A DNA stretch of 64,000 nucleotides from positions 2,743 to 66,742 of the forward strand of contig CAYHIK010000004.1 in the NCBI GenBank assembly GCA_964356795.1, written 5' to 3'. Positions 25,478-62,592 of the stretch are shown piece by piece; the stretch's first letter is position 1; each line of letters begins with the position of its first letter. The notes under the pieces were generated by a model. It saw only the letters and a program-made list of their open reading frames with translations, searched no databases and was not told the origin of the DNA. A program made the translations under genes and the position numbers. This DNA is from an uncultured Candidatus Saccharibacteria bacterium. GTDB lineage: Bacteria; Patescibacteriota; Minisyncoccia; 2-02-FULL-40-12; GWA2-44-9.

Positions 25478-26776
25478 CTAGATCTGAATATCCCAATCTT
25501 CAACCTCATTATGGAGCAATGGCGGAAGACTCCCCCCTTTTACGATAACCACATCAAAAATCTTCTCCATCCAAAGATGTGTGTGCTCAGGTTCCGCCTC
25601 CTCAGTGGCAATTTTTTCTGGATTGAATACTTGGTCGAATCCCTCAAAAAATGCTCGGCGAAGCTGCTCAGCATCTCCCCAATGAAGACCGGCACGCTCT
25701 CCAGCGCGAATAAGCATCCGGAGGCCATAGCACATGTCGCGCATATCTTTGAGTGATTCGCGTCGCACGCCACTGTACTTTCTAATCTTTGCCGCATCAT
25801 CTTCTTCGCTCCAGTGACTAATGGTGCCAATATCTACAATTTCCGCGGCAAGCGTGACATTTGCGGAATGCATTGCACCGTGCGCAAATCCATCGTTCAG
25901 TAATACCGCCATATTTCTACCCATGCTCTTATAAAACTCAGCGAAGAACGCCTCCTCATGCTCGGGATTTCCAATACTAAGATTAATCATGGATCTTCTC
26001 GTATCTTGACTCTCGAGATTAAAAATCTGAAACGCCCGTTCAAAGAGTGCCCGACTACGCTCAGAGTCTGATTGCGCAGCCTCTGCAATTCTATTATTCA
26101 TCTTCAACAACCGGACAGCTTGACTGGGTTCGAAGTCTTCGCGCGGGGAAATAATTCCACGCGCCCGAAGTTCTGGGACGGTCAGCATAACCCCACGGAA
26201 AGGGAGTCGCTTCACGCTTGCAACCGCCCAATATAATTCACAGCGCAATCCTCGCCCAAGGAGCATCTCTGATTTCGCCATAATATCTCCCCGACTATTC
26301 TCCCCGCTTGAGACGAACCCAAGTACACGGTATCCGTGGTCCTCAACGCTCTCCTTGTTTTTGATTGTCCATGTATCGTATTCCTCAAAGGGAAGGCCTT
26401 TCGCAGAAATCTTCGTGTACCCAACACCCTTCGTGTTCACCGTATAGAAGTGTACGGGGTGCGAGCTACCGCTATCAGACGGAATTTCAACGTGAGCATG
26501 CACACCATGCTCGCTAATAACCCTCCAGTGAGGCGCCTCCACCACTCGAGTCACCGATCCAGCACTCGGACTTATAAACACAAAAAAATCATGAATGTCT
26601 CGATCGGAGTGCACCCGCTCGTTTTTTTGCTCAATAGCATAATCGTCCCCCTCTTTCAGCACCATAAACCGCTCAGGCCGTGGTTCAATGCCAGCTATTT
26701 CACGCCCCACAAAACCATCGAGCTCTTTTAGTGCGGGTCGCGGCGCCTGGCGCTCTCGTTGCATACGTTCATTCAT
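25478..26776 (-). CDS. Divergent SelO/YdiU (UPF0061)-like kinase-fold protein, a putative AMPylase-like enzyme
   Basis: TKGVGYTKISAKG resembles the SelO LKGAG.TPYSR motif; FAHGAMHSANVTLAAEIVDIGT resembles SelO [22 protein letters not shown]. Weak, motif-level only. Confidence 0.4.
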   Translation of the reverse strand: MNERMQRERQAPRPALKELDGFVGREIAGIEPRPERFMVLKEGDDYAIEQKNERVHSDRDIHDFFVFISPSAGSVTRVVEAPHWRVISEHGVHAHVEIPSDSGSSHPVHFYTVNTKGVGYTKISAKGLPFEEYDTWTIKNKESVEDHGYRVLGFVSSGENSRGDIMAKSEMLLGRGLRCELYWAVASVKRLPFRGVMLTVPELRARGIISPREDFEPSQAVRLLKMNNRIAEAAQSDSERSRALFERAFQIFNLESQDTRRSMINLSIGNPEHEEAFFAEFYKSMGRNMAVLLNDGFAHGAMHSANVTLAAEIVDIGTISHWSEEDDAAKIRKYSGVRRESLKDMRDMCYGLRMLIRAGERAGLHWGDAEQLRRAFFEGFDQVFNPEKIATEEAEPEHTHLWMEKIFDVVIVKGGSLPPLLHNEVEDWDIQI

Positions 26777-26790
26777 AGTATAGATGCGTA

Positions 26791-27609
26791 TTATCTCAAA
26801 AATCCTTTTCGCTGAATCTCGGACTGTAGCTCTACATCCTCTTTCGGTGCAAGCCTCATAATCTTTGTAGGAGCGATATCTTGAAACAGCTCACGACCCC
26901 GATCTAGGCGAACCTCCTCCGCGCGAAGTTCTGGATCAAGAGCAATCACGTCAGTTAATGCTCCATCTTCATACAATAATGACACACCACGCGGCACCGC
27001 AATACCACTCGGAAGCTCATTATTACGAATTGCATCCGCGAGGACTGCTCGACGATATGTATCCTCCGGCTCAAAGTGGGGAATGTAGCTCCCCTTCAAA
27101 AATCCGAGCGTATTGCGAATAGGCGAAAGCTCAGGACCAAACGAATCCGTAAGACCACCCTCGAACCAACACATCGCCCCCGCACTCTTTCCACTCAATA
27201 CAATCCCCGATTCATACGCCTCTTTGAGCATGGGGCGTAGTCTATGCGTATCCCAAACGGCAAGCATGTTGGCGGTATTCCCACCGCCAACATAAATGAG
27301 GTCATGCGACAAGATAAATGCTCGCATGCGCTCTTCGGAAAGCTGTCGATCAAAGAGAGAGAGCACGTTTACATGGCAATGACGCTCCATGTTTGCATAC
27401 TTCATCCCTAAAATATCATCGAGACTCTCCCCGCTTGCAGTCGGCACATATAAGACCTCTGGATATGGGACACCCGTACGCGACAAAAGCCAATTATTGA
27501 ACTCCCGCGAATCAGCATTCTCAAGCCCCATCCCACTCCCGACACAGATAATTTGTTGCTTAGCTAATGTGCTCATGTGGTTTTCTGTAGCGTCCAGTCG
27601 CCGTGCCAT
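26791..27609 (-). CDS. Peptidase family S51 (peptidase E/cyanophycinase-like)
   Basis: YVGGGNTANML and the nucleophile motif SGKSAGAM; His in YIPHFEPE. Confidence 0.65.
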   Translation of the reverse strand: MARRLDATENHMSTLAKQQIICVGSGMGLENADSREFNNWLLSRTGVPYPEVLYVPTASGESLDDILGMKYANMERHCHVNVLSLFDRQLSEERMRAFILSHDLIYVGGGNTANMLAVWDTHRLRPMLKEAYESGIVLSGKSAGAMCWFEGGLTDSFGPELSPIRNTLGFLKGSYIPHFEPEDTYRRAVLADAIRNNELPSGIAVPRGVSLLYEDGALTDVIALDPELRAEEVRLDRGRELFQDIAPTKIMRLAPKEDVELQSEIQRKGFLR

Positions 27610-30600
27610 GTCTCATTGCCATCAGCATCCATCTCCCAAATAACGACCGCTGGCGTATCCCCCCGCTTGTCATGTACCATATAGCTATTGAAAGTCGTCT
27701 CGTTGGTTCGCACCAATCCCATAGGACGACAATGTTTAAATCGTGCGCGATATACATCATTGATCGGTTGTCGATTTGTAGACGCCATGCCACGCATGTC
27801 CATCGGAATTGCTACGACGGCATGCGAATCCCACAGAGTAACGCTCCCACCCGCTCGCATGCGCTCCGCCCGCATACGTCGCGCCGTGGCAATCGCCTCC
27901 TTCAGCGAGCTCAACACGAACGCGTCAGCGTCGAGCGTTCGGATAAAGTTTTCCGTTGGATTATTCGCGCGCACCACAAGCACGGGCACTTTTGATTCTT
28001 TAGATTTCGCCATAATTGCGAGCACCGAACCACGAAGCTCCTCGTTGTCCTTACCTCGGTTTGATGCATACACCCACGTTCGTAGATTGGGGTACTCGCC
28101 CTCTGCGATTTCTCGATGCCGTGAAGTGTGGCACGAATCACCTAAATCGCCTGAAAAAATATGGAGCAAGCCAGAAACGGGCACCAGTGAAACTGAAACT
28201 GATTTCACTGGCTGACTAGTTCCGACCCCAAGGATGTCATCGAGCTTTCGCTTGAGAGCAGTAATCGGCAGATAGCCAGTACGCGGATCGAGTTTTTGAA
28301 GCCACACCTGATTAAGCTTCTCGAGTAGTGCAGGAGAGAATGGCGTGTGCTCAGTATGGTCTGGGTCCTGGAAGTGGTGCAAATAATGCTCTTCGATATA
28401 ATCCTTAGAAAGCGCGTGGACGCCGTATATCCTTTCTGCTGTTGGTTCATCATCCCTCCAAAGCGCGAGCGTCGCTACAACATCTCCCCAATTTGTACTC
28501 TCCATAGTCTGTAACGCATGAACCGCGGAAAGCGCGCGAATGTCCTTAGCGAGCGAGATGGGTCCGTCGAGCTCAGCCATTGACTCTAAGGCTGCGACGA
28601 TATCGGGCTCTCCTTGCTCGCTTTCATACAACACATCCAGAATCGTTTGGATGTTTTTACTCATCTCCTTGAGCGCACCAGCCTGCCGCTCGATACCGAT
28701 ACGGCCTCTTGGATTCTGCAACGCCTTTGACTTCCGAATAAGCTCCTGTTTCTTTTTTAGGTCCCCCTCGTCACGAATAGCTATCTCGATTTCTTCAGGG
28801 GCACTCGCAAGAAGCGAACGGAGTGTGTTTTCTTCATCAAGAAGACGATGATGCGCGGAATCAAGTAAATCCAAAACAGAAAATAACCCGGCATCACCCC
28901 ATGCTTCTGCAAGTGGCTCGTACACATCGACCACCTCTTGGCTTACCAGGAATGCAGAGAGCGCCTCTGACTGGTCTTTGGATTTCTCCCGCGCTTGGCG
29001 TGCGAGCGGAATATCCATGCTCGCCTCCTGGAATCCGATGGGAAGCTTCGCGAGCGCCGGACGAAGGCGCACCGTTTTGCGATACGCATCAAGAATATCG
29101 GACACGCTATCGCCTCGCTCAAACTGTGTCGTCCCCTTGAGCCGACTGAACAATTCCTCCCCAAGTGAAGACTCGATACCCCCAGGAATCTCGTCCTTCA
29201 ACATCGTAGACTGCATGGTTCCGAGCGATTTATATACAGCATTAAACAGCTCAAGTGAGTCCTTGAAGCGCCATCCTCCGCTTTTTCGCCTCGCTTCTAT
29301 CCCAAATTCGGAGCACTCCTCCAGAGACTCCCCAGAGAGCGAGTCGAGATTGCGATGCCTTTGACAGTCTGCGTAGAATCGAAAGAGTGCGGGGGTGTTG
29401 CGCATCCCAACTAATTCCACAAACGATACGAGCATCGCCATATCGTCCTTGTTCTCCACACGAACCACGCCACTGCTGGTGAGCTCCTTCAGGAGTGGTA
29501 TGAATTCAGAAGTCCACGGATCATTCGCAACATTCTGAGCAAAGCCCTGTATGTTCGCTATCCTAGAAAGGGCGCCAAAGAACGGATCATGCTGAATGGC
29601 GCTCCGTATCAAAGACATCTCATCGGGGTACTCGCGCGACAACGTATCGTCGTTGAGATTTTTTAATATAGCGACCGCCTGCCCTGGATCGCTATATGCC
29701 GATTTTAGAACCGCCGAGCCGAGGCTATCAATGCGAGCTCGAGATCCGAGCAGTTTCAGTTTTCCAAACGCAGAAGCAAGGAGATTACTCTTAGTACCTG
29801 GGAGTTCGTACGCGATAATCTTCCCTACAATGCAAGTCATGAGCTCTGGCGAAGGGACGTATTGGTCTACTTCTAACAGGCCCGCGATGTGGCCATCGCC
29901 ACGCGCGCGGTCAAATAGTTCAGTCGCAAGAGTCTCGAACTCTGCGTCTGTCGAGGCAAACCCAGCGGAAACCACGTTATGAAATGCCTTGAGGCGCTCA
30001 AGGGTGGGGTAGAATCCCAACGTACGCATACCCCGTATCAGCGCGATATATGCATGCTGCATTTCACCGCTGTGCTTTGTAAAGTCAGGGCGAATGGAAG
30101 TCACGCGCCGTACGACATCTATCGGATTCGGCATACTCGAGAAACGACATAGAGAAATAATAAGCTCCACAACCTGTTTCTCGCTAAAGTCTGACTCGAT
30201 GCCAGAAACATCCCGAAGCGCAATGAGGTCTTGCGGTGTGTTGGGTATTTCTTTTCGAATGCCCTCACGAAGCCGTGAATATCGCTCATGAATCGCATCT
30301 TTGTAGAGAGAAAAATCAGGCTCGATACCCGTAAGTTCTGCGGCTAATCGAATGACGTCAGTCATCCGTAGATTCGGCGAGCGAAGCCATGTCTTATAAC
30401 GCGCATGCATCTTTGACGCTTCGATACGCGGGCGGATAGCAGTTGCCTCAAGGAGCCGCACTGCAGCATCGAGCTGTAGTTGTCGTCCGTAATGGTACTG
30501 ATACGTAAGCCCCTCCGCCTGAAGAATAATGTCCTCGTATTGCTGTTGAATTGCTGGCTCAATAGCTTCGAAATTCGGCTCAATGCCCGTAATTTCCTGG

Positions 30601-32132
30601 AGTAAATGAATGCCTTTTCGCGAGCGCTCAGTTATATCAAGCGCGAGTTTCATATACGCGCTCTGGAGAAGTTCTGGCGCGATTTCGTATCGCACACCTG
30701 TCAGATGCTTCACATTCAACGCGAATTGAAGTGCTGGTGGATCAAATGATTCGTCGCTGAGCAAGGAGTAATACATGTCCTGAATCTGCATCGAGAAATC
30801 TGTGTACTCCATACGCACGCCCGACATACGCTCCAATTGCGGAATAATGGAGAGGACCTCTCGGCGGTTCTCATGTGAATCCCCTCGACACGCACTTAGG
30901 GTCAATTCCCAATACGCGAAGCGCATAAGCGACGGCAAGCGTTCCGTTTCTGTGTAGCGCTCCAATGCATTCATGACCCGCTTCATCGACGCGAGCATCG
31001 CTGAGTGTTGATGCTCGCGCCCACTGAAATAGCGCCAGCCACCTATAAATTCAATCATGGAAGCTTGCACCCCTGGATGCAGAAAGGATTCGGCATCACC
31101 TGCTTGAATTCCCGCAAAATCAAGAGGAGTGATTTCTGTGCCACCATACGGCGAGCGAGCAGCCTTATTAAGATACGAAATGTGATGATCAATCTTCGCA
31201 ATTTCTTGCTGGTCAGATGCACGCACCCGGAGAGCGCGGAATAGACGCACGAAGTCAGTCGCAATCGCATGCGTCCTATACCGATCCCCGTACTCACCTA
31301 CTTTGAGTTTATATGCGTGAAATAATTCTAGGATTGCATCGGCATCATGCGCTGATCCGATTCGCGTGAAGATAGTCCTAAACACCTCAGACGATGCAGG
31401 GCGAGCCATGACAGTATCGAGCGAAAAAAGATTCATAATACGCCCTGCGAGCGCAGGGGTTGCCATGTAGGGAACCATCCTGATGCACGTAGTGAGCCGG
31501 TCCACGTCCACGGCACCGGATTGAGCATATGCGATCACGTGCTCGAGTGCTTGAGCTCCGTTATCACGAAGTCGACGACGAAGCTCGACAATATACTCCG
31601 CTTCCCGATTCTCGCGTTCATGTCCCGCCCCGTAGTACTCATCACTGGGATCAATATAGGGGGGATCGTAGAAAGCCCGGTGGTCCACGCACGCCTGTAA
31701 GAGCTTGGCAACGCGCTCTCCCTCCTCTTCTTGCGTAGCGCGCTCAAGCTTTGCAGTGTCTCGACGACGCAAAGCCTCGCGCCCCCACTCAAAAACATCG
31801 AAATCATGTATATCATCGGGTACAAGCTCCGCAATAAGCTGACCCTCCATGGGATTGTCTGGATCGGTATCGGTAAGAATGACGACGCGATACGCTACAC
31901 CCTCCTTAAGTGCTTCGCCACCTGGAGGCGGTGTGTACGTAATAATCTTCCGGTCAGGCGCGCTACTCTTGTATATGACGCCTCCGTGCTTTGTGGTAAA
32001 TCGTCGGAATGTAACGTCAAGAAACACTCGCCCCTCCAGCCCAAGAGGGCTCACCTCATGTGATGGTTGAGATTCTGGCTGATGTTCTGTATGAGAGTGC
32101 CCCTGCGCGCCTTCTGTCATGCCTATTGACAA
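27573..32132 (-). CDS. Very large (1519 aa) hypothetical protein with internal about 60-aa tandem repeats
   Basis: Uninterrupted 4.56-kb ORF. Four repeats carry the [LV][TS]GIEP[DN]F motif at about aa 520-760; no P-loop, nuclease or TM motif seen; its 3' end overlaps the S51 peptidase gene by 37 bp. Confidence 0.6.
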   Translation of the reverse strand: MSIGMTEGAQGHSHTEHQPESQPSHEVSPLGLEGRVFLDVTFRRFTTKHGGVIYKSSAPDRKIITYTPPPGGEALKEGVAYRVVILTDTDPDNPMEGQLIAELVPDDIHDFDVFEWGREALRRRDTAKLERATQEEEGERVAKLLQACVDHRAFYDPPYIDPSDEYYGAGHERENREAEYIVELRRRLRDNGAQALEHVIAYAQSGAVDVDRLTTCIRMVPYMATPALAGRIMNLFSLDTVMARPASSEVFRTIFTRIGSAHDADAILELFHAYKLKVGEYGDRYRTHAIATDFVRLFRALRVRASDQQEIAKIDHHISYLNKAARSPYGGTEITPLDFAGIQAGDAESFLHPGVQASMIEFIGGWRYFSGREHQHSAMLASMKRVMNALERYTETERLPSLMRFAYWELTLSACRGDSHENRREVLSIIPQLERMSGVRMEYTDFSMQIQDMYYSLLSDESFDPPALQFALNVKHLTGVRYEIAPELLQSAYMKLALDITERSRKGIHLLQEITGIEPNFEAIEPAIQQQYEDIILQAEGLTYQYHYGRQLQLDAAVRLLEATAIRPRIEASKMHARYKTWLRSPNLRMTDVIRLAAELTGIEPDFSLYKDAIHERYSRLREGIRKEIPNTPQDLIALRDVSGIESDFSEKQVVELIISLCRFSSMPNPIDVVRRVTSIRPDFTKHSGEMQHAYIALIRGMRTLGFYPTLERLKAFHNVVSAGFASTDAEFETLATELFDRARGDGHIAGLLEVDQYVPSPELMTCIVGKIIAYELPGTKSNLLASAFGKLKLLGSRARIDSLGSAVLKSAYSDPGQAVAILKNLNDDTLSREYPDEMSLIRSAIQHDPFFGALSRIANIQGFAQNVANDPWTSEFIPLLKELTSSGVVRVENKDDMAMLVSFVELVGMRNTPALFRFYADCQRHRNLDSLSGESLEECSEFGIEARRKSGGWRFKDSLELFNAVYKSLGTMQSTMLKDEIPGGIESSLGEELFSRLKGTTQFERGDSVSDILDAYRKTVRLRPALAKLPIGFQEASMDIPLARQAREKSKDQSEALSAFLVSQEVVDVYEPLAEAWGDAGLFSVLDLLDSAHHRLLDEENTLRSLLASAPEEIEIAIRDEGDLKKKQELIRKSKALQNPRGRIGIERQAGALKEMSKNIQTILDVLYESEQGEPDIVAALESMAELDGPISLAKDIRALSAVHALQTMESTNWGDVVATLALWRDDEPTAERIYGVHALSKDYIEEHYLHHFQDPDHTEHTPFSPALLEKLNQVWLQKLDPRTGYLPITALKRKLDDILGVGTSQPVKSVSVSLVPVSGLLHIFSGDLGDSCHTSRHREIAEGEYPNLRTWVYASNRGKDNEELRGSVLAIMAKSKESKVPVLVVRANNPTENFIRTLDADAFVLSSLKEAIATARRMRAERMRAGGSVTLWDSHAVVAIPMDMRGMASTNRQPINDVYRARFKHCRPMGLVRTNETTFNSYMVHDKRGDTPAVVIWEMDADGNETWHGDWTLQKTT

Positions 32133-32384: not shown

Positions 32385-33698
32385 CTACACACAGAAGCGT
32401 TTTTCATCTGCCGACGGACCCGCTGACTCGATACGAATCGGCACGCCCACTATGTGCGCCAACTCGTCCAGATACGCGGGCATATGTGACGCTGCATCCT
32501 CGTACACGGGCGCGACTCGCGTGAGGAGTGACGTCAGGTTCGATTGGTATTCGAGATCGGTGAGCTCCTGCTTCGGCGCAAGGTCAGTCTCCCGCCCCCA
32601 ATCAGGAATGTCGTAGGCAGTACAAATCTTCCGCGATGGCACAGATGCGAATCGATCCGTGTTCGTGATGACCAGCGCATCGATACCACGACTGACGGCA
32701 ATCGCATATCGCGCGAGCACTGCATCGAACCATCCAACCCTGAACCCACGTTGCCACTGATTCGATGTGTTACACGGGTCAGGAAGTTGATCGGTAAGGT
32801 GTTCACACTCCGTCGGGAATGGCCCAGCCCCGTGACGCGTGAAGTACGCGCGGAGCAGTCCATACTTCAGAACGTCGCCCGCGTAGCCGACCTCAGACAA
32901 GAGCGTCATCGCATTCGCCGGCGTTGTCGTGCTCCACGTCGTGTACGGATGAAATCCGTACCATTCATCGAGCAACACCCCCTGCGCACCCTCGAACACG
33001 AGATTCTGCCGTTCCGCAATTGTTCCAAGGTATGAGCCAGGAACAATCGTAAACGGCGATGCGTATTCATGCATCAACCGAGCAATCCGATCGGGAGCAT
33101 CGGCATCTTCGAATGCCTCGAGCGCATACTCCAATCGCTTATCCTCGACACCAACACCGACGATCTTCAGCCGGTCGCGAATCGCATACAGCTTCTCACG
33201 AAGCACCACTGGATACTTGAGATCACGCGCATGAATAGCAGTATCGGGAAATGCGATGCTATCGGCCATTGTCTCGCCGATACCCATCCCGCAACTGCCA
33301 TGGCGTCCATTGCCACGCAACGATTCACGAATCTGATTTGCATATGCGTGGAACGGCGTAATCACGAGCGCGCCTTCATCAATCGTCAGCCGCTCGAACA
33401 CGTTCGAGCATCCCGCCTCCTGCAACTCATGCGCCTCACTCACCAGCCCTGATGGCTCGACGAGCATGAACCGCGAAAGATGCGTCCGCACACTAGGCAT
33501 AAATGTCCCGCTCCCGAACTGCGAGAACACGTGCTCCCGACCGTCAGGCGTCACTACGCGATGCGCAGCCTGCGCACCTCCGTTGAATCGCACAACAGTG
33601 CCAACAGCGTGCATGCGACACAGGAAGTCAACAATCGTACCCTTTCCCGCATCTCCGAATCCAAGGTCAACGACAATCGTTGCCGTGTGATTATTCAT
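32385..33698 (-). CDS. Adenylosuccinate synthetase (PurA)-family protein, divergent
   Basis: GFGDAGKGTIVD (PurA QWGDEGKGK), RFNGGAQAAHRV (GGHNAGHT), FEGAQGVLLD, YTTWSTTT (SSNTT), GAGPFPTE. The IMP-loop GTTGRGIGP is replaced by GSCGMGIGE. Confidence 0.7.
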   Translation of the reverse strand: MNNHTATIVVDLGFGDAGKGTIVDFLCRMHAVGTVVRFNGGAQAAHRVVTPDGREHVFSQFGSGTFMPSVRTHLSRFMLVEPSGLVSEAHELQEAGCSNVFERLTIDEGALVITPFHAYANQIRESLRGNGRHGSCGMGIGETMADSIAFPDTAIHARDLKYPVVLREKLYAIRDRLKIVGVGVEDKRLEYALEAFEDADAPDRIARLMHEYASPFTIVPGSYLGTIAERQNLVFEGAQGVLLDEWYGFHPYTTWSTTTPANAMTLLSEVGYAGDVLKYGLLRAYFTRHGAGPFPTECEHLTDQLPDPCNTSNQWQRGFRVGWFDAVLARYAIAVSRGIDALVITNTDRFASVPSRKICTAYDIPDWGRETDLAPKQELTDLEYQSNLTSLLTRVAPVYEDAASHMPAYLDELAHIVGVPIRIESAGPSADEKRFCV

Positions 33699-33770
33699 AC
33701 GCGCCTCCGCGTGCAGAAAAAAAGAAATGGCGGTGCCCGAGTACCATATCGGACACCGCCAGAGAGCTAC

Positions 33771-34784
33771 CTAGATACGACTGACACCGCGACCCTTGCG
33801 GGAGTGCGCGGCAGGGAGAGTTCCCTTCGCCGTCTTCGCCGGCAGACCACCTGCGCCGATGTGAACCAGCGCGTTCTTCACGGTGGTAGCGTCGCGACCC
33901 GTGAGGCCGATGTCGCCAACGACCGCGTCGACGTCACGAGCGCTCTCGATCGAGTGAATGATGCCTGCGATGACTTCGCAGACGAGCGAGGAATCCTCCA
34001 CTCTCACGAAGCGTTCACCCAGCAACTTCTTCCACCGATTCTGGATGGTCGCATCGTTCGGATAGCCCCCATCGACTGAGAAGAGGTGGAACACTTCCCA
34101 CTGCTCCTTCACCCGTTCGAGGAGTGCCTCGACTGTTTCGTCTTTCTGAGCCGTCACACCGAAGATATCCTTCACTTCGCTTCGGGTGATCTTCGGCCAG
34201 AGCGATTCGTCGCCCATGGTGAAGAGGTACCCCTTCTTACCGCGCTTCTCGAACGAGTCGGTCGCCGTGTGGTACGCAGCGAAACGCCACGCCAGTCCGT
34301 ACGACTCCTGAACCTGACCACCACCACCGCCCTCGACGATGATGTTGCGCAGCTGTTCGTCGAATCGGTTGTCCGACTCGAACTGACCAACCTGGAACGG
34401 GTACTGGTCGCAATGCGAGTCGCCGATGGCGCCGACCAAGATCTGCGGATCCTTGATGCCAGCCTTCTCGCGAATGACGTCCATCAACTTGACCAACTTC
34501 GTCTGCAGGGTACGAGGGATTGCTCCCATCGAACCCGTCACGTCGAAGAGGATAGCGATGGGCAACGATTCGGGATGCTCGTCGCTGTCGCGACTCTCAC
34601 GAATCGGCTTGCCCGCCACCGGACTGGTCGGTCCAGCCACCTTCTTCGGGTCCAAGTCCGGATGGATTCCGTGCGCGACACCCGCGCGAATTCTCGCATC
34701 GTGGCCAAAGTCGGGCACACCGGTACTTCTCCGCGTCGTCGTTGCGCGCGCGTATGCGTCCGAGTCGAAGCTTCCACCGCCCAT
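33771..34784 (-). CDS. von Willebrand factor type A (vWA) domain protein
   Basis: MIDAS motif LPIAILFDVTGSMG (DxSxS) plus downstream Thr/Asp ligand positions; low-complexity N-terminus. Confidence 0.7.
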   Translation of the reverse strand: MGGGSFDSDAYARATTTRRSTGVPDFGHDARIRAGVAHGIHPDLDPKKVAGPTSPVAGKPIRESRDSDEHPESLPIAILFDVTGSMGAIPRTLQTKLVKLMDVIREKAGIKDPQILVGAIGDSHCDQYPFQVGQFESDNRFDEQLRNIIVEGGGGGQVQESYGLAWRFAAYHTATDSFEKRGKKGYLFTMGDESLWPKITRSEVKDIFGVTAQKDETVEALLERVKEQWEVFHLFSVDGGYPNDATIQNRWKKLLGERFVRVEDSSLVCEVIAGIIHSIESARDVDAVVGDIGLTGRDATTVKNALVHIGAGGLPAKTAKGTLPAAHSRKGRGVSRI

Positions 34785-34799
34785 GACACTACTCCTTGA

Positions 34800-35954
34800 T
34801 TATGATCCCGCGCTCGAATCCGGCACAACCATCGGCCGATATTCTCGCTTCCACTCCGTCCGGACGATGCGGGTAAACTCGTCCAGAAGGTCTCGCCCAT
34901 CAGTGGGCCTTTTCTGTGAATCTTCGTTGACGCATCGGATGATGCAGTCCGCCATGGCCGCAGGCGTACTCCGAGGAACCGTATTACGCTGCGTGTCGCC
35001 ACCCAAGAGCCATATCAGCGTCTTCCCGACCATGAACAAATCGGTGTGATGACTCGGCGACTTCTTATCGATAACTTCCGGCGGATACCAATCCTTCCAT
35101 CGATCGATCATCATGGTGATACGATCACCAGAATCACGATCAACCGCATGGAGCCAACCAATGTGCTGCGGTTCCCGTGTGATGGGGTGTACGAGCACAT
35201 GATCGGGAGTAATCGCCCCGTGAATGGCGTGTATCATGCGTGCGGCAATTGCCTGTGCAATCACGCGTCGCCCAACCCACGCAACTTCATTTGGCTCCAA
35301 TGACCTACTCAGTCGAGTACGAATATCCGCGAGTGACAGCATCCCATCGTAGGGAGTCATCACGATCGCTCGATATCGCCGACCGCCATCAACCACGCTG
35401 AACGCATCTCGAATCGGTGGAAGGTAGGGCAACAATTTCGGAAACTTCTCAAACCGCTTCAGGATCATAAGCTCATGATCGAACAGCGGATTGAACGTAG
35501 GATCGGCCGAAAGCTTGATGAGTACCGGCCCCGACGCACCCGTAATCTGTGTCGCACGGTAGAGCACCGAGAAGTCGCCCGAGTGATACGGAGTATGCTC
35601 GAGCCGATACGTGGCACTCGCAGACTGGAGAATTCCACCATCGTTCACGGCTGCACGTGATGCCGTCGGGGCAGCACCGACCCTAAACGGAGTAGCGTAT
35701 ACTCCATTATCCAGAGCGGCCTCCGCGGACTTCCATAATTCGTTCAGGCGCTGGAATACTTCTCCCGCGAGAGCGGCTGCATGAGCCGGAGCAACATCGG
35801 GGTGCACCTGCCGAGCAAGATAGCTAAAACTCTTACGGAGTTCGCGCTTTCGCTCGAGCACATCAACTCCAGGCACGGCACCGAAAATTGCTTCGAATGT
35901 CGTTGCCGTTCGCAGTACCAACGATACAGCCTCGATATCACTTACGGACGACAT
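34800..35954 (-). CDS. J-domain protein fused to a protein-kinase-like (probable pseudokinase) domain
   Basis: J-domain HPD motif in YLARQVHPDVAP; kinase-like VLIKL (beta3 Lys), catalytic-loop-like IHGAITPDHVLV (Asp to Ala) and WYPPE (APE-like). Confidence 0.5.
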   Translation of the reverse strand: MSSVSDIEAVSLVLRTATTFEAIFGAVPGVDVLERKRELRKSFSYLARQVHPDVAPAHAAALAGEVFQRLNELWKSAEAALDNGVYATPFRVGAAPTASRAAVNDGGILQSASATYRLEHTPYHSGDFSVLYRATQITGASGPVLIKLSADPTFNPLFDHELMILKRFEKFPKLLPYLPPIRDAFSVVDGGRRYRAIVMTPYDGMLSLADIRTRLSRSLEPNEVAWVGRRVIAQAIAARMIHAIHGAITPDHVLVHPITREPQHIGWLHAVDRDSGDRITMMIDRWKDWYPPEVIDKKSPSHHTDLFMVGKTLIWLLGGDTQRNTVPRSTPAAMADCIIRCVNEDSQKRPTDGRDLLDEFTRIVRTEWKREYRPMVVPDSSAGS

Positions 35955-36030
35955 AGCTCCCTCCGCTTTTGTGAGCGTGTCCCTTCAATTTTCAACGTCC
36001 TTGCCGCCACTCTACACCCTTCTTATTTAG

Positions 36031-36076
36031 TGTCAATAGTACACCTAACACCGTGTGCATAAGTGTACATTTGACA
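36031..36076. promoter_or_regulatory. Candidate operator: 14-bp inverted repeat TGTCAATAGTACAC-N18-GTGTACATTTGACA in the divergent promoter region
   Basis: 12 of 14 arm positions are complementary; lies between the divergent NrtR-like gene and the J-domain/vWA/PurA-like operon. Confidence 0.3.
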
Positions 36077-36106
36077 AGAAGTACCGAGGTGCGGTAGAGT
36101 TATAAT

Positions 36107-36802
36107 ATGCATCAAAAAGGCAATTTAGTCAAGAATCTTCGCTTTGCCACCATCGCTACCGACGTGGCCCTTTTTACGATTCATAATCAAGAATTATTGG
36201 TTCGCGTGATTCCCGTTCACCGCCCACCTCACTATCATAATGCTCGTGGCCTCCCCGGCGGGCTCATTCTCCCCCATGAAACAGCAGAAAATGCCGCACG
36301 AAGACTCCTCATCGAAAAAGGAGGCATCACATCGTCAGCGGTATACCTAGAGCAACTCGCGACATTCAGCGCACTCGATCGCGATCCACGCGGACGCGTT
36401 ATCGCAGTTGCACACATCGGACTTGTGTCATGGAGCGAACTCACCGATGCGGAGCGAAGTACAAGTGATGCCGCATGGGTTACCGCGCGCGAAGCGCGCA
36501 ACCTCGCCTATGACCATGATGAGATGCTCACGATGGCGCACGCACGACTCGCGTCTCGCATCGGATACTCCACGATTATCCGTGGCCTCATACCATCCGA
36601 ATTCACGCTCACCGAACTCGAGCAAGCCTATGAGTGCGTTCTTGGACGCCCCATGGACAAGCGCAATTTCCGGAAAAAAATATTGAAACTCGATATTATT
36701 CGACCCCTTCACCGCACCCGCCAAGGCGCGAAAGCACGTCCAGCGCAACTCTATGCATTCGCGAAGAACTCGATTCAGATGATCGATCTCTTCCGCACAT
36801 AA
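36107..36802 (+). CDS. Nudix hydrolase domain fused to a C-terminal winged-helix domain (NrtR-like transcriptional regulator)
   Basis: Nudix box GLPGGLILPHETAENAARRLLIEKGG; C-terminal about 80 aa basic helix-rich region as in NrtR. Confidence 0.6.
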   Translation: MHQKGNLVKNLRFATIATDVALFTIHNQELLVRVIPVHRPPHYHNARGLPGGLILPHETAENAARRLLIEKGGITSSAVYLEQLATFSALDRDPRGRVIAVAHIGLVSWSELTDAERSTSDAAWVTAREARNLAYDHDEMLTMAHARLASRIGYSTIIRGLIPSEFTLTELEQAYECVLGRPMDKRNFRKKILKLDIIRPLHRTRQGAKARPAQLYAFAKNSIQMIDLFRT

Positions 36803-39400: not shown

Positions 39401-40852
39401 CTACACCGCAAGATCAAGCGTTTCATCGATGCGTATCTGGCTCACAAATTCAGGGACGTGACTCACGAGAATCATCGCCCCCTGATAGGCGCTCAGGGCA
39501 CTCGCAATGACGGGAATATGTCGGAAGTTTATATGATTTGTCGGCTCGTCGAGAATCAAGAGCCCCGGTCGCTGGAGCACGAGCCGTGCGAATGCAACGA
39601 GTCCCTTCTGCCCCTCCGAAAGATTTCCAATGTTCGTCTTCATCGCTTCAGATGTAAGAAGAAATCCAGCGGCAATCGAGCGAATCTCCTCCTCGCCAAG
39701 ACTCGGCGCCACAGAGCGAAGCGACGCATATACCGTATCTTCGAAATTGAGCGTCGAAAAATCTTGACGGTAGTATCCCACCGTCACCCCCGAAGCGAGC
39801 GTAGCCCCTGATGCACTCCCCGTCGCGATTGATCCAAGGAGCGTGCTCTTGCCAATACCATTTGGCCCAGAAAGAAGCAGATGTCTATTCTTCTGGAGCG
39901 CAATCTTCACCTTCTTCTTCGCTGGCTTATGATGTTTAAATACCGACACCGACGACAGCGTGAGAATGTCGCCCGTTAATCCCTCCTGTACGGGAATAGT
40001 GAATGGACGAATCGTTTTGTCTTCTTTCCGCACATCAACCTGAGCCTCTTCCATTTCCTCCGCCGCTTCGCGCATCTTTTTCGCAAGTAGACGCAATCGT
40101 CCACCCTTCATCGCAAAAAAGTTTGCTTTCTCCTTCTTCTCAATCGCCTCTTTTGCGAGACGAGCATTCGCGCTGTTCTCCTTTTGAATACGCGCAGCCA
40201 CCTGCTCAACAACATCGAAATAATTTCCCTGATATTGCTCGACACTTCGCGTGCGCGCATCAAGGTACAACACTCCCTGCGTAAATGCATTCAAGAAGTC
40301 TGCATCGTGCGAGATGACCAAGCACGTCTTCGGATATTCAATCAGAAACTGGCGCAGATGAGCGATGCCAGCAACGTCGAGATTGTTGGTCGGCTCATCG
40401 AGTAAGAGTACATCGGCATCCTGAATAAGCGCAGACGCCAGCAAGAGCCGCGCCTGCTGACCGCCCGAAAATGAGCGGACGATGCGGTCGTGGGGCGCAT
40501 GAAGGTTCACAACCTCGAGCACCGCATCGATGCGCGGATCGATATCGTAGACCGTCTCCGAAAAACATTTCTGAAAAAACTCCCGAACCGTAAGGTCGAG
40601 CTGGTCTCGTGGCATCACCTGTCGAGCAAGCGCAACCGTCAAACGTGGATGCACGTGCACCTCTCCAGATTCAGGTCGCAATCCGCCAGTGATCAGTTGG
40701 AAAATAGTACTCTTACCTGCACCATTCTGTCCCATGATGGTCATCTTTGCTCCCCGTCGAATCGAAAAATCCACCTCCGAGAGGATTGGCTTGGCGTGGC
40801 CGTATTCAAACGACACGCCTTTGAACCGAATAATAGCTTCCTGGTGAGTCAT
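39401..40852 (-). CDS. ABC-F family ATPase (translation-associated; two ABC domains, no TM)
   Basis: Two Walker A motifs (GQNGAGKST, GPNGIGKST), two signature/Walker B regions (LLLDEPTNNLD, LILDEPTNHIN), inter-domain linker. Confidence 0.85.
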   Translation of the reverse strand: MTHQEAIIRFKGVSFEYGHAKPILSEVDFSIRRGAKMTIMGQNGAGKSTIFQLITGGLRPESGEVHVHPRLTVALARQVMPRDQLDLTVREFFQKCFSETVYDIDPRIDAVLEVVNLHAPHDRIVRSFSGGQQARLLLASALIQDADVLLLDEPTNNLDVAGIAHLRQFLIEYPKTCLVISHDADFLNAFTQGVLYLDARTRSVEQYQGNYFDVVEQVAARIQKENSANARLAKEAIEKKEKANFFAMKGGRLRLLAKKMREAAEEMEEAQVDVRKEDKTIRPFTIPVQEGLTGDILTLSSVSVFKHHKPAKKKVKIALQKNRHLLLSGPNGIGKSTLLGSIATGSASGATLASGVTVGYYRQDFSTLNFEDTVYASLRSVAPSLGEEEIRSIAAGFLLTSEAMKTNIGNLSEGQKGLVAFARLVLQRPGLLILDEPTNHINFRHIPVIASALSAYQGAMILVSHVPEFVSQIRIDETLDLAV

Positions 40853-62294: not shown

Positions 62295-62521
62295 GTTTGC
62301 TGCACATTCAGTCTGCTAGCCTCAGTACTTCCTCGCTCGCGCTCGGTCGCGGGGCTTGGATTCACCCGCCACTCTCGATGCCACCAGTCGTGGCATCTCG
62401 GTTCTGGGCTCCGGCCCTCACGGCCACATCAGCTGATGTGGCATCGTTCCGGGCTTCGAATCCAAGCCCTCCATCAAACAGCGAATATAAAACACCCGAA
62501 GTGGGTGTTTTATATTCGTAG
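62291..62521. repeat. Repeat B (about 230 bp), abutting the 3' end of tRNA-Gln
   Basis: See repeat A; contains gcggggcttggattcacc (tRNA 3'-end-like) and the covarying hairpin ccacatc-agc-tgatgtgg, where A has tatcatt-tact-aatgata. Confidence 0.7.
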
Positions 62522-62592
62522 CTGCGGGACTTGGATTCGAACCAAGATAGGCGGATCCAAAATCCGCAGTCCTACCATTAGACGACCCCGCA
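62522..62592 (-). tRNA. tRNA-Gln (anticodon UUG)
   Basis: Minus strand TGCGGGG-TC-GTCT-AATGGTA-GGAC-T-GCGGA-TTTTGGA-TCCGC-CTAT-CTTGG-TTCGAAT-CCAAG-TCCCGCA-G. U1:A72 as in bacterial tRNA-Gln; T-loop TTCGAAT; anticodon loop with U33 then UUG. Confidence 0.8.

Follow-up and report, generated by a model that had tools for sequence, protein, structure and literature searches.

The window, that is, the whole stretch of 64,000 nucleotides that was analysed, belongs to a cellular contig and carries a conserved gene module that begins with an NrtR-like regulator, continues with a J-domain kinase-like protein and a MIDAS vWA protein, and ends with the gene of a PurA-like enzyme. The features of the locus are as follows.

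32385-33698, minus strand: PurA-like open reading frame of 437 aa, matching PF00709 end to end (residues 8-432, E 5.7e-70)
33728-33761, minus strand: terminator-like hairpin with a 13-bp stem and a U tract, in the spacer between the vWA and PurA-like genes
33771-34784, minus strand: vWA-fold partner of 337 aa, with the MIDAS motif DVTGSM, a GGGGGQ loop and an N-terminal Met-Gly within MG[GSYH][GS]x[WYF]
34800-35954, minus strand: fusion of a J domain with a Hanks-type kinase-like domain; HPD (residues 51-53) invariant, VAIK Lys and alpha-C Glu kept
36028-36078, no strand assigned: pair of NrtR-type operator candidates between the divergently transcribed genes, each promoter-like site being overlapped
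36028-36046: predicted operator Box 1, TAGTGTCAATAGTACACCT
about 36060-36078: predicted operator Box 2, which contains GTGTACATTTGACA
36107-36802, plus strand: NrtR-like regulator combining a winged helix with a Nudix domain (PF21906, E 1e-21; PF00293)
39401-40852, minus strand: soluble ATPase with two ABC domains (PF00005 twice), ABC-F-like

The enzyme gene lies directly downstream of the vWA gene, with 72 nt between them, and this pairing, which distinguishes the gene from canonical purA, recurs far beyond the window: the two genes are adjacent in 79 of 80 genomes (CPR, Actinomycetota and Planctomycetota), and in 76 of 80 viral contigs the PurA-like gene is found inside the ±6 kb flank of the vWA gene, mostly directly adjoining it. 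In the flanks of these 80 viral loci, the vWA, PurA-like and J-kinase families are the only ones conserved. The vWA partner was counted in 521 or more species genomes and in 119 or more IMG/VR contigs, the latter mostly of 100-437 kb, and the module is common in CPR bacteria and in large phages. The PurA-like proteins linked to it include members from free-living Actinomycetota (Nocardia, Rhodococcus, Micromonospora and Streptomyces) and from phages of M. smegmatis, and form the commonest group of PurA homologues in sequenced phages (201 of the 248 phage records matched).

The high-GC actinobacterial loci were searched by tblastn, given that naive clustering of open reading frames yielded spurious antisense frames there, among them a 299-aa Nocardia frame that was discarded. 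A Pfam scan of 11 neighbouring proteins in the window identified a flavoprotein, a methyltransferase, an S51 peptidase, the NrtR-like regulator and the ABC ATPase, the others being unmatched. A 1519-aa frame, the S51 peptidase and a 432-aa frame, all downstream, were assigned to the outside of the module, as they are absent in all other loci. Megablast of the window locus against phage genomes returned no match. No publication on the module was found in the literature, where genome announcements mention the gene without a function, and papers of the Aravind laboratory that deal with NAD-ADPr systems, with jumbo phages or with vWA-NTPase systems contain no reference to it; NARP3 is an unrelated pair of PnuC and NadR.

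Solved PurA structures share about 30% identity with the PurA-like protein of the window (E 1e-39), and no structure is closer; across 155 loci, the median identity of E. coli PurA to the clade is 29.7%. The protein remains below both PurA equivalog cutoffs, with 180 bits in TIGR00184 (cutoff 395.55) and 199.7 bits in NF002223 (cutoff 402), and it reaches 56.6 bits in the PurZ model NF038379, for which the cutoff is 300, while solved PurZ structures align with it over the first ~90 residues only. Scores below the cutoffs of both families, together with the low identity to solved PurAs, would place it outside PurA and PurZ. The clade is defined here as the vWA-linked PurA-like clade, including the phrog_1211 members of Bixzunavirus, and its signature combines Q38, H126, H273, Q301 and the deletion of R303 with the retention of D13, H41 and Q224; the protein of the window carries this signature in its entirety.

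For the comparison of individual residues, the protein was aligned to E. coli PurA, whose numbering is used unless stated, and to 153 vWA-linked orthologues (77 from genomes and 76 from viral contigs), following an earlier set of 120 database homologues. The motifs lie at the following positions, the residue numbers in the list being those of the window protein.

33639-33662, minus strand, residues 13-20: GFGDAGKG
33561-33584, minus strand, residues 39-46: NGGAQAAH
33273-33302, minus strand, residues 133-142: HGSCGMGIGE, the remodelled loop for the IMP 5'-phosphate and ribose (IGTTGRGIGP in E. coli), with I126H, T129C, R131M and P135E, and also T128S
32979-32996, minus strand, residues 235-240: FEGAQG
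32808-32840, minus strand, residues 287-297: TRHGAGPFPTE, which carries His in place of V273
32724-32762, minus strand, residues 313-325: NQWQRGFRVGWFD, aligned to the L-aspartate loop of E. coli (GATTGRRRRTGWLD)

All of the motifs quoted in the earlier note are present in the 437-aa frame, and the changes that it had described can be assigned to T128S, T129C and R131M in the phosphate loop and to E14A in the first glycine-rich motif. The remodelling that it had seen in the Arg-rich loop is likewise as quoted, with NQWQR-GFRVGW in place of GATTGRRRRTGW, which in the alignment corresponds to T300W, T301Q, the deletion of R303 and R305F. In addition to these, N38Q and P135E are found, and the alignment adds I126H, V273H, D231W, S240W, K331N and the loss of the trans-subunit R143, all of which were absent from that note. 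In E. coli PurA, V273 lines the ribose and aspartate site.

The catalytic core is kept, with D16, K19, H46 and Q239 of the window protein corresponding to E. coli D13, K16, H41 and Q224, and so are the ligands of the GTP guanine, D348 (D333) and S425 (S414). Among the orthologues, D13, K16 and H41 occur in 153 of 153 and Q224 in 152, while K331 is replaced by Asn, His or Cys, although D333 and S414 are retained. As judged from the alignment, then, the predicted machinery with which the C6 carbonyl of a purine would be phosphorylated by GTP has been preserved, from the P-loop, the Asp13 base and the His41 acid to Gln224 and the pair of Asp333 and Ser414, and the use of GTP is likely.

The substrate side presents a different picture. 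The IMP 5'-phosphate is bound in PurA by Asn38, Thr239, Thr129 and the Arg143 in trans, and T239 alone is kept across the 153 orthologues, given that N38 becomes Gln, T129 becomes Cys or Val, and R143 gives way to Asp, a gap or a variable residue. The changes N38 to Q, V273 to H, T301 to Q and the deletion of R303 are each found in 153 of 153 orthologues, with H126 in 147, C129 in 134 and E135 in 133, and in the same set position 300 is aromatic (W, Y or F) and position 305 hydrophobic (F, L or W). Three of the four phosphate ligands and the whole cationic L-aspartate loop thus appear in the alignment to be exchanged for a new, strictly conserved set made up of Gln38, His126, Cys129, Glu135, His273, an aromatic residue at 300, Gln301 and a hydrophobic residue at 305. 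Because the same replacement residues are fixed, first across the 120 database homologues and then across the 153 vWA-linked orthologues, the substitutions indicate purifying selection on what would be a new pocket, and neither drift nor decay. An ordinary nucleoside 5'-monophosphate may still be a substrate, given the conservation of T239 and of the backbone position of G127. Mutagenesis of E. coli AdSS (Honzatko and Fromm) reportedly showed that T301, R303 and R305 are needed for the use of aspartate, and an enzyme with its aspartate loop disabled is said to react nevertheless with small nucleophiles such as hydroxylamine.

These observations bear directly on the possibility that the gene encodes a genuine, lineage-typical adenylosuccinate synthetase, which would convert IMP, L-Asp and GTP to adenylosuccinate in CPR purine salvage and bind aspartate and phosphate through other residues. 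The full-length match to PF00709 and the intact D13, K16, H41, Q224, T239 and D333 are compatible with such an enzyme, as are the annotation of homologues as adenylosuccinate synthetase in the source databases, the proximity of some of them to genes of nucleotide salvage (dNK, TK, HD nucleotidase and RNR), and the lack of a second purA within the 64-kb window. This explanation is nonetheless very unlikely, given that the scores are about half of the equivalog cutoffs, that T301, R303 and R305 are missing in 153 of 153 orthologues, in a loop with no remaining positive charge, and that the obligate vWA partner is left without a role. The presence of the clade in free-living Actinomycetota and in phages of M. 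smegmatis points in the same direction, as these bacteria and phage hosts are generally known to possess a canonical PurA already.

The earlier note had taken another path, attributing such changes to enzymes of the PurZ or PurZ0 type, which form dSMP from dGMP and Asp as a precursor of 2-aminoadenine. A PurA homologue with altered substrate loops would suit this suggestion, and phage relatives are indeed named "2-aminooxy adenylosuccinate synthetase" by PHROG 1211 and RefSeq. However, the hallmark of PurZ and PurZ0 is the exchange of Asp13 for Ser, which 147 phage sequences carry without exception (PMC12884076), whereas the GDAGKG of the window keeps the Asp, and true PurZ retains both the tip of the aspartate loop, which it needs, and the Arg in trans (PMC8342488), whereas the protein of the window has a different loop and no R143. 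Residues N38, T129, V273, T300 and R305 are all unchanged in the PurZ of Acinetobacter phage DMU1 as aligned here. PurZ is moreover a short enzyme of archaeal type that is accompanied by DatZ, MazZ, DpoZ or DutZ/DmtZ (PMC8342488, PMC12884076), whereas the protein of the window has the full bacterial length and is encoded on a cellular contig, and no domain of the DatZ, MazZ or DpoZ type was detected by Pfam among the 11 neighbouring proteins. Together with the low score in the PurZ model and the partial match to PurZ structures, this makes a PurZ-type activity extremely improbable. The interpretation in the earlier note is thus supported in part: its general conclusion of a probably non-canonical substrate is borne out by the replacement of the phosphate ligands and the aspartate loop by strictly conserved residues with the catalytic residues intact, while the argument from PurZ, whose pattern is the opposite one, fails.

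The reading preferred here, held with somewhat better than even confidence, assigns the PurA-like frame to an orthologous clade of its own within the adenylosuccinate synthetase superfamily, widespread, as yet uncharacterised and neither PurA nor PurZ, whose members are probably GTP-dependent purine-C6 ligases which use a nucleophile other than aspartate and work with the vWA partner.

This partner, which corresponds to phrog_2971 (E 2.9e-73), has a mean pLDDT of 84.5 in its AF2 model, for which Foldseek returns integrin beta-I and vWA domains. Its family comprises 598 clusters at 50% identity (E<=1e-30), it is 60-74% identical across CPR, and Gly2 is found in 152 of 152 loci; the extra parts of long homologues, examined as possible fusions, contained no Pfam domain. 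The hairpin that follows its gene folds at -33.1 kcal/mol (z -4.5), and hairpins of other sequences occupy the equivalent position in seven of seven other CPR-type loci; the element is probably an internal attenuator.

The J-domain protein (phrog_3043) is modelled with a mean pLDDT of 90.3 by AF2, with Foldseek matches to PknB, VRK and MST2, and its profile search against the PDB retrieves DnaJ J domains and Ser/Thr kinases. Its HRD motif reads HGA and its DFG motif reads GW, with the catalytic Asp absent, which by its motifs is a pseudokinase-like pattern. The protein is detected in 52 of 80 genome loci and 55 of 80 viral loci, which leaves roughly a third of the loci with no detected copy. 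Of the 28 genome loci in this latter group, mostly from Nocardia, 19 carry an equivalent ABC ATPase gene upstream of that of the vWA protein, sometimes directly adjacent to it (several loci); a copy 64% identical to the ATPase of the window is found at positions 835-2337 of locus L003, and this protein possibly serves the module as an accessory.

Such a composition raises the further possibility of an effector or sensor of biological conflict, on the side of defence or of counter-defence, in which a vWA co-chaperone and an ATPase input (Hsp70 through the J domain, or the ABC ATPase) would control a PurA-derived protein whose output is the depletion or binding of GTP or IMP and not the making of one particular product. 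In joining an enzyme to a vWA protein and to a part that recruits chaperones or is itself an ATPase, the module is similar to the MoxR-vWA and GTPase-centred systems (PMC7159879), the ABC ATPase of Nocardia stands where the J-kinase would be, and the module is frequent in large phages; sensing of an ADPR-type ligand would also suit a response to NADase immunity. In PADLOC, the kinase has weak matches to mad6 and PD-T4-6, but there is none for the PurA-like protein or the vWA protein, nor for the regulator or the neighbouring proteins. The components are also unusually conserved, as seen in the vWA identities across CPR, unlike those of fast-diversifying systems, neither variable effector domains nor fusions turned up, and the strict D13, H41 and Q224 with a new ordered pocket argue for a defined chemistry on a defined substrate. 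A conflict system is accordingly regarded as unlikely, if less so than a canonical synthetase.

NrtR-like genes are found in the flanks of 70 of 80 genome loci, and at the sequence level the protein of the window has the features of the NrtR family, with a C-terminal winged helix, candidate GT-N7-AC operators, and a degenerate Nudix box (RLLIEK against REUxEE), the last of which suggests that its Nudix domain is a sensor and not a hydrolase. NrtR-family regulators sense other ligands too, such as arabinose in the case of AraR. The operator-like palindromes lie beside the regulator gene and upstream of the bacterial operon, and although the one match in the window lacks statistical significance when taken alone, an exact TAGTGT-N7-ACACTA is present between the regulator and J-kinase genes in loci L003, L012 and L013; the core of the NrtR consensus is GT-N7-AC (PMC2330246). 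As a raw count, 14 of 80 viral loci have a gene for Nampt, NadM-type NMNAT-Nudix or NADAR at a distance of up to 6 kb, and NAD genes are also found near the module in phages TM30 of Rhizobium and Va1 of Vibrio. The link of the module to NAD or ADPR is thus circumstantial.

Returning to the GTP-dependent ligase, the mechanism proposed is that the enzyme would use GTP to activate a 6-oxopurine-type, IMP-like substrate, and that the activated carbon would then be coupled to a nucleophile other than free L-aspartate, either an amine that is neutral or small or one that belongs to a peptide. During the coupling the enzyme would be bound to the vWA partner, which would either fill in the missing binding groups or be itself the acceptor, and the J domain would bring in the host DnaK. 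Expression would answer an ADP-ribose-like ligand, linking the module to NAD+ and nucleotide stress, a link that would account for its carriage by large phages, frequently next to genes for NAD+ salvage.

In the boldest variant of this mechanism, the amine of Gly2 of the vWA protein, exposed after the removal of Met, would replace L-aspartate as the nucleophile, attacking C6 of an IMP-like nucleotide after its activation by GTP, which would leave an N6-linked purine at the N-terminus of the protein ("protein purinylation", +330 Da for IMP). This is a speculative variant with rather little probability assigned to it, and it would fit the replacement of all cationic residues of the aspartate loop by Gln and aromatic residues, the obligate adjacency of the two genes, the conserved internal terminator, which should raise the vWA protein above the enzyme, and the availability of a J-domain pseudokinase to handle the modified protein. 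If true, it would represent a new post-translational nucleotide-tagging system in CPR bacteria, actinomycetes and large phages, tied to the sensing of ADP-ribose and NAD+.

The PurA superfamily is now treated as consisting of two types, PurA for AMP and PurZ/PurZ0 for the Z base, and from its sequence pattern the vWA-linked clade looks like a third functional type. Its members are annotated as ordinary adenylosuccinate synthetases or, wrongly, as of PurZ type, and this misannotation corrupts both the metabolic reconstructions of CPR bacteria, in which the clade is common and nucleotide metabolism is poorly understood, and the screens for phages with Z genomes. The three-gene module is small and sharply defined, and M. 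smegmatis with its Bxz1-type phages offers a tractable pair that carries it, so that direct tests are feasible both for the chemistry and for the apparent connection with NAD+ and ADP-ribose stress.

Among known systems, bacterial PurA (E. coli AdSS) shares with the enzyme the fold, the full length and the motifs GDxGKG and GxGPFPTE, together with Asp13, Lys16, His41, Gln224, Thr239, Asp333 and Ser414, and differs from it in the phosphate site (N38Q, T129C, R143 in trans), the aspartate loop (T300W, T301Q, R303 deleted, R305F) and the residues V273H, I126H, P135E and K331N. PurZ and PurZ0 are, like the present clade, phage-carried paralogues of PurA with a changed specificity, but their residue pattern is the opposite one, in that Asp13 is exchanged and the aspartate loop and phosphate ligands stay. 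A third group is formed by the "PurA-like adenylosuccinate synthetases" of cluster C1 mycobacteriophages (Bxz1 gp250 and Tonenili gp104; phrog_1211), which belong to the same clade at 37% identity and share its signature in the HGSCGKGIGE-type loop, H273 and the WQG-xFR loop. The Bxz1-type phage Tonenili has the same gene order of J-kinase, vWA and PurA-like genes, with identities of 28%, 39% and 37%, respectively. E14 is kept in 57 of 76 viral orthologues, Tonenili having Ala as in the window, and its kinase-like domain has Asp-Trp at the DFG position, where the window has Gly-Trp; the phage copies are without the NrtR-like regulator, unlike the window.

The regulatory part resembles the NrtR regulons (Rodionov et al. 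2008, PMC2330246) in its divergent or adjacent Nudix-wHTH gene, its degenerate Nudix box and its palindromic GT-N7-AC operator; the known regulons hold genes for NAD biosynthesis and salvage, pentose or DraG, and a PurA-like operon is not among them. Finally, the chaperone-type NTPase-vWA systems (Kaur et al. 2020, PMC7159879) share the tight coupling of a MIDAS-vWA protein to an NTP-using partner, with Hsp70/DnaJ or ATPase variants. The present module, which is absent from that paper, differs in having no MoxR AAA+, variable effector domain, STAND or EAD modules, and its NTPase is a SIMIBI-class enzyme of the PurA type with an intact catalytic site.

The PurA-like gene of the window encodes a protein of 437 aa that is covered end to end by the Pfam family Adenylsucc_synt (E 5.7e-70), and all of the motifs quoted for it in an earlier note were found at their positions in the ORF:
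32385-33698, minus strand: PurA-like ORF

Alignment to E. coli PurA, whose numbering is used here, confirmed the substitutions reported in that note (E14A, T128S, T129C, R131M and the rewritten Arg-rich loop) and added N38Q, I126H, P135E, V273H, D231W, S240W and K331N. Arg143, supplied in trans by the other subunit, is also lost, and one residue is deleted at Arg303. Asp13, Lys16, His41, Gln224, Thr239, GAGPFPTE and the guanine ligands Asp333 and Ser414 are kept, so that the GTP-type P-loop and the Asp13/His41 machinery are intact, and the aspartate-binding cations are lost. In the E. coli enzyme, the 5'-phosphate of IMP is bound by N38, T129, T239 and R143', and the aspartate site is shaped by T300, T301, R303, R305 and V273; judging from the alignment, three of these phosphate ligands are swapped in the PurA-like clade, as is the entire aspartate site. 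R143 and D231, which lie at the subunit interface, are gone as well, and this suggests a different quaternary arrangement.

The replacement residues are common, nearly without exception, to the 120 closest database homologues, which are 47-58% identical and come mainly from metagenomes of Patescibacteria and Chloroflexota. The signature was counted in 153 vWA-linked PurA-like enzymes, all of which have D13, K16 and H41, with Q224 and D333 in 152 each and T239 in 151. Q38, H273, Q301 and the R303 deletion are likewise found in 153/153, H126 in 147 and C129 in 134, and an aromatic residue occupies position 300 and a hydrophobic one position 305. On this alignment evidence, the changes are not drift, and the near-invariance of both residue sets indicates that the catalytic residues of PurA and the new pocket residues are both under selection.

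In the window, which derives from a Hainich groundwater metagenome (0.1-µm filter), the PurA-like gene comes last in a row of three genes read in one direction, after first a J-domain kinase-like gene (J-kinase) and then a vWA gene. The J-kinase (384 aa) combines the invariant HPD motif of the J domain with a Hanks-type kinase fold in which HRD reads HGA and DFG reads GW, the VAIK Lys and the alpha-C Glu being retained. The vWA protein (337 aa) has the vWA fold, a complete DxTxS MIDAS motif and a GGGGGQ loop, and its family comprises 598 clusters (50% identity, E<=1e-30), for which no solved structure was found. Its N-terminus, M-G-[GSYH]-[GS]-x-[WYF]-[DS]-x-x-x-[YW], is kept from CPR bacteria to phages, and Gly2 is present in all 152 bacterial and viral loci with an alignment starting at residue 1. 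The spacer between the vWA and PurA-like genes contains a strong terminator-like hairpin, and hairpins with a U tract, differing in sequence, occupy the equivalent position in 7/7 other CPR-type loci (L numbers denote collected homologous loci, each with its own coordinates):
34767-34784, minus strand: conserved N-terminal motif of the vWA protein, codons 1-6
33728-33761, minus strand: GC-rich terminator-like hairpin with U tract, window
L003 7906-8000, L004 5733-5832, L006 7919-8000, L011 9009-9121, L012 7212-7299, L013 9018-9105, L015 9036-9113: spacer hairpins of other loci

Such a hairpin may act as an attenuator within the operon and so fix how much vWA protein is made relative to the enzyme, and it implies that the vWA protein is the more abundant of the two.

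Three genes lie directly downstream of the module:
27573-32132, minus strand: ORF of 1519 aa, with no match in Pfam, PHROG or PADLOC
26791-27609, minus strand: S51 peptidase
25478-26776, minus strand: ORF of 432 aa, unknown

They were rejected as module members, since apart from the near-identical contigs L001 and L002 no other locus has them. The sole tRNA gene within the window is tRNA-Gln(TTG) (62521-62592, minus strand).

The equivalent arrangement occurs in four other metagenomic loci, and the mycobacteriophage Tonenili (Bixzunavirus, cluster C1) carries the three genes in unchanged order, with identities to the window of 28% (kinase-like), 39% (vWA) and 37% (PurA-like); the vWA and PurA-like pair is also present in Rhizobium phage TM30 and Vibrio phage Va1. 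When the vWA alignment was searched against one genome per GTDB species, at least 521 genomes matched. Among the best 80, 79 have the PurA-like gene next in line after the vWA gene and in the same orientation, and the one exception is a contig end. These 80 are Saccharibacteria, Kaiserbacteria, Planctomycetota and many Actinomycetota (Nocardia, Rhodococcus, Micromonospora, Frankia and Streptomyces among them), and their flanks hold an NrtR-like gene in 70 cases and the J-kinase in 52. Of the 28 loci, mostly from Nocardia, that lack the J-kinase, 19 have a gene for a two-domain ABC ATPase 5' of the vWA gene, several times directly adjacent:
39401-40852, minus strand: soluble two-domain ABC ATPase (ABC-F-like), window, 3.5 kb upstream of the module
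L003 835-2337 and Nocardia locus L060 6288-7859: copies elsewhere

Free-living actinomycetes and M. smegmatis are generally known to carry a PurA of their own. In IMG/VR, at least 119 viral contigs, most of 100-437 kb, have the vWA gene. Of 80 of these, 76 hold a PurA-like gene within ±6 kb of it, as a rule right beside it, and 55 hold the J-kinase, and no other conserved gene family was found in these flanks. The module is thus sharply conserved and common to bacteria and phages, and no publication describing it was found in literature searches.

Upstream of the operon, a divergent gene encodes an NrtR-like Nudix-wHTH regulator with a degenerate Nudix box, RLLIEK. The operator core of NrtR is GT-N7-AC (PMC2330246), and two palindromes with this core, overlapping promoter-like hexamers, are located between regulator and operon:
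36028-36046 and about 36060-36078: TAGTGT-N7-ACACTA-type palindromes, window
L003 5580-5598, L012 4918-4936, L013 6724-6742: exact TAGTGT-N7-ACACTA sites at the equivalent position

These palindromes probably serve the NrtR-like regulator as operators. Table 1 of PMC2330246 (Rodionov et al.) also lists the unexplained genes nrtX and nrtY of Streptomyces and Frankia. Given both the family of the regulator and the NAD+ genes near the viral and phage loci, a circumstantial but recurring link of the module to NAD+ emerges: Nampt, NadM-type NMNAT-Nudix or NADAR genes lie within 6 kb of the module in 14/80 viral loci (raw count), and among isolated phages, the neighbourhood holds a NadM-like gene in TM30 and a NADAR gene in Va1:
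L095, L111, L119, L121, L142, L149, L156, L166-L169: Nampt near the viral triad
L101, L135, L152, L156 and L010 2242-2892: NADAR near the module
L009 1-239: NadM-like gene near the module

The vWA gene is obligately coupled, genetically, to the PurA-like gene, which is often coupled to the J-domain pseudokinase-like protein or the ABC ATPase, in an operon beside an NrtR-type regulator gene with operator-like palindromes upstream. In the mechanism that we propose, the PurA-like enzyme would still phosphorylate the C6 oxygen of an IMP-like purine, and the activated carbon would then be passed to a nucleophile other than free aspartate. The vWA protein may be a subunit whose MIDAS metal and GGGGGQ loop provide the missing ligands, or may itself be the acceptor, the J domain would bring in DnaK, and the operon would answer to an ADP-ribose-like signal. 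That the nucleophile is the N-terminal amine of the vWA protein would fit the invariance of Gly2 and the excess of vWA protein implied by the spacer hairpin, and we consider it improbable.

With respect to known enzymes, the window protein reaches 180 and 199.7 bits with the purA equivalog models (cutoffs 395.55 and 402) and 56.6 bits against the PurZ model (cutoff 300), and the curated models thus place it outside both known functional types. The nearest solved structures are bacterial PurAs (about 30% identity), and PurZ structures align with the first ~90 residues only. Within the PurA superfamily, the gene falls into a third clade, which is large and uncharacterised. Bixzunavirus RefSeq records (e.g., NC_031080.1 157315-158643) and PHROG 1211 bear the name "2-aminooxy adenylosuccinate synthetase", which is a PurZ-type name in garbled form. 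As the phage proteins so named retain Asp13 and do not show the PurZ signature, it is probably a misannotation, which could mislead screens for Z-genomes.

The earlier note had likened the enzyme to PurZ and proposed a non-canonical substrate; the broader suspicion stands, such a substrate being likely from the altered pocket residues, whereas the comparison with PurZ does not hold. PurZ and PurZ0 have Ser rather than Asp at position 13 in 147/147 phage sequences (PMC12884076), PurZ conserves the trans Arg and the tip of the aspartate loop (PMC8342488), and the PurZ of Acinetobacter phage DMU1 retains N38, T129, V273, T300 and R305 in our alignment. A PurZ-like enzyme was rejected because the window protein presents the reverse of this pattern, with Asp13 kept and the pocket loops changed.
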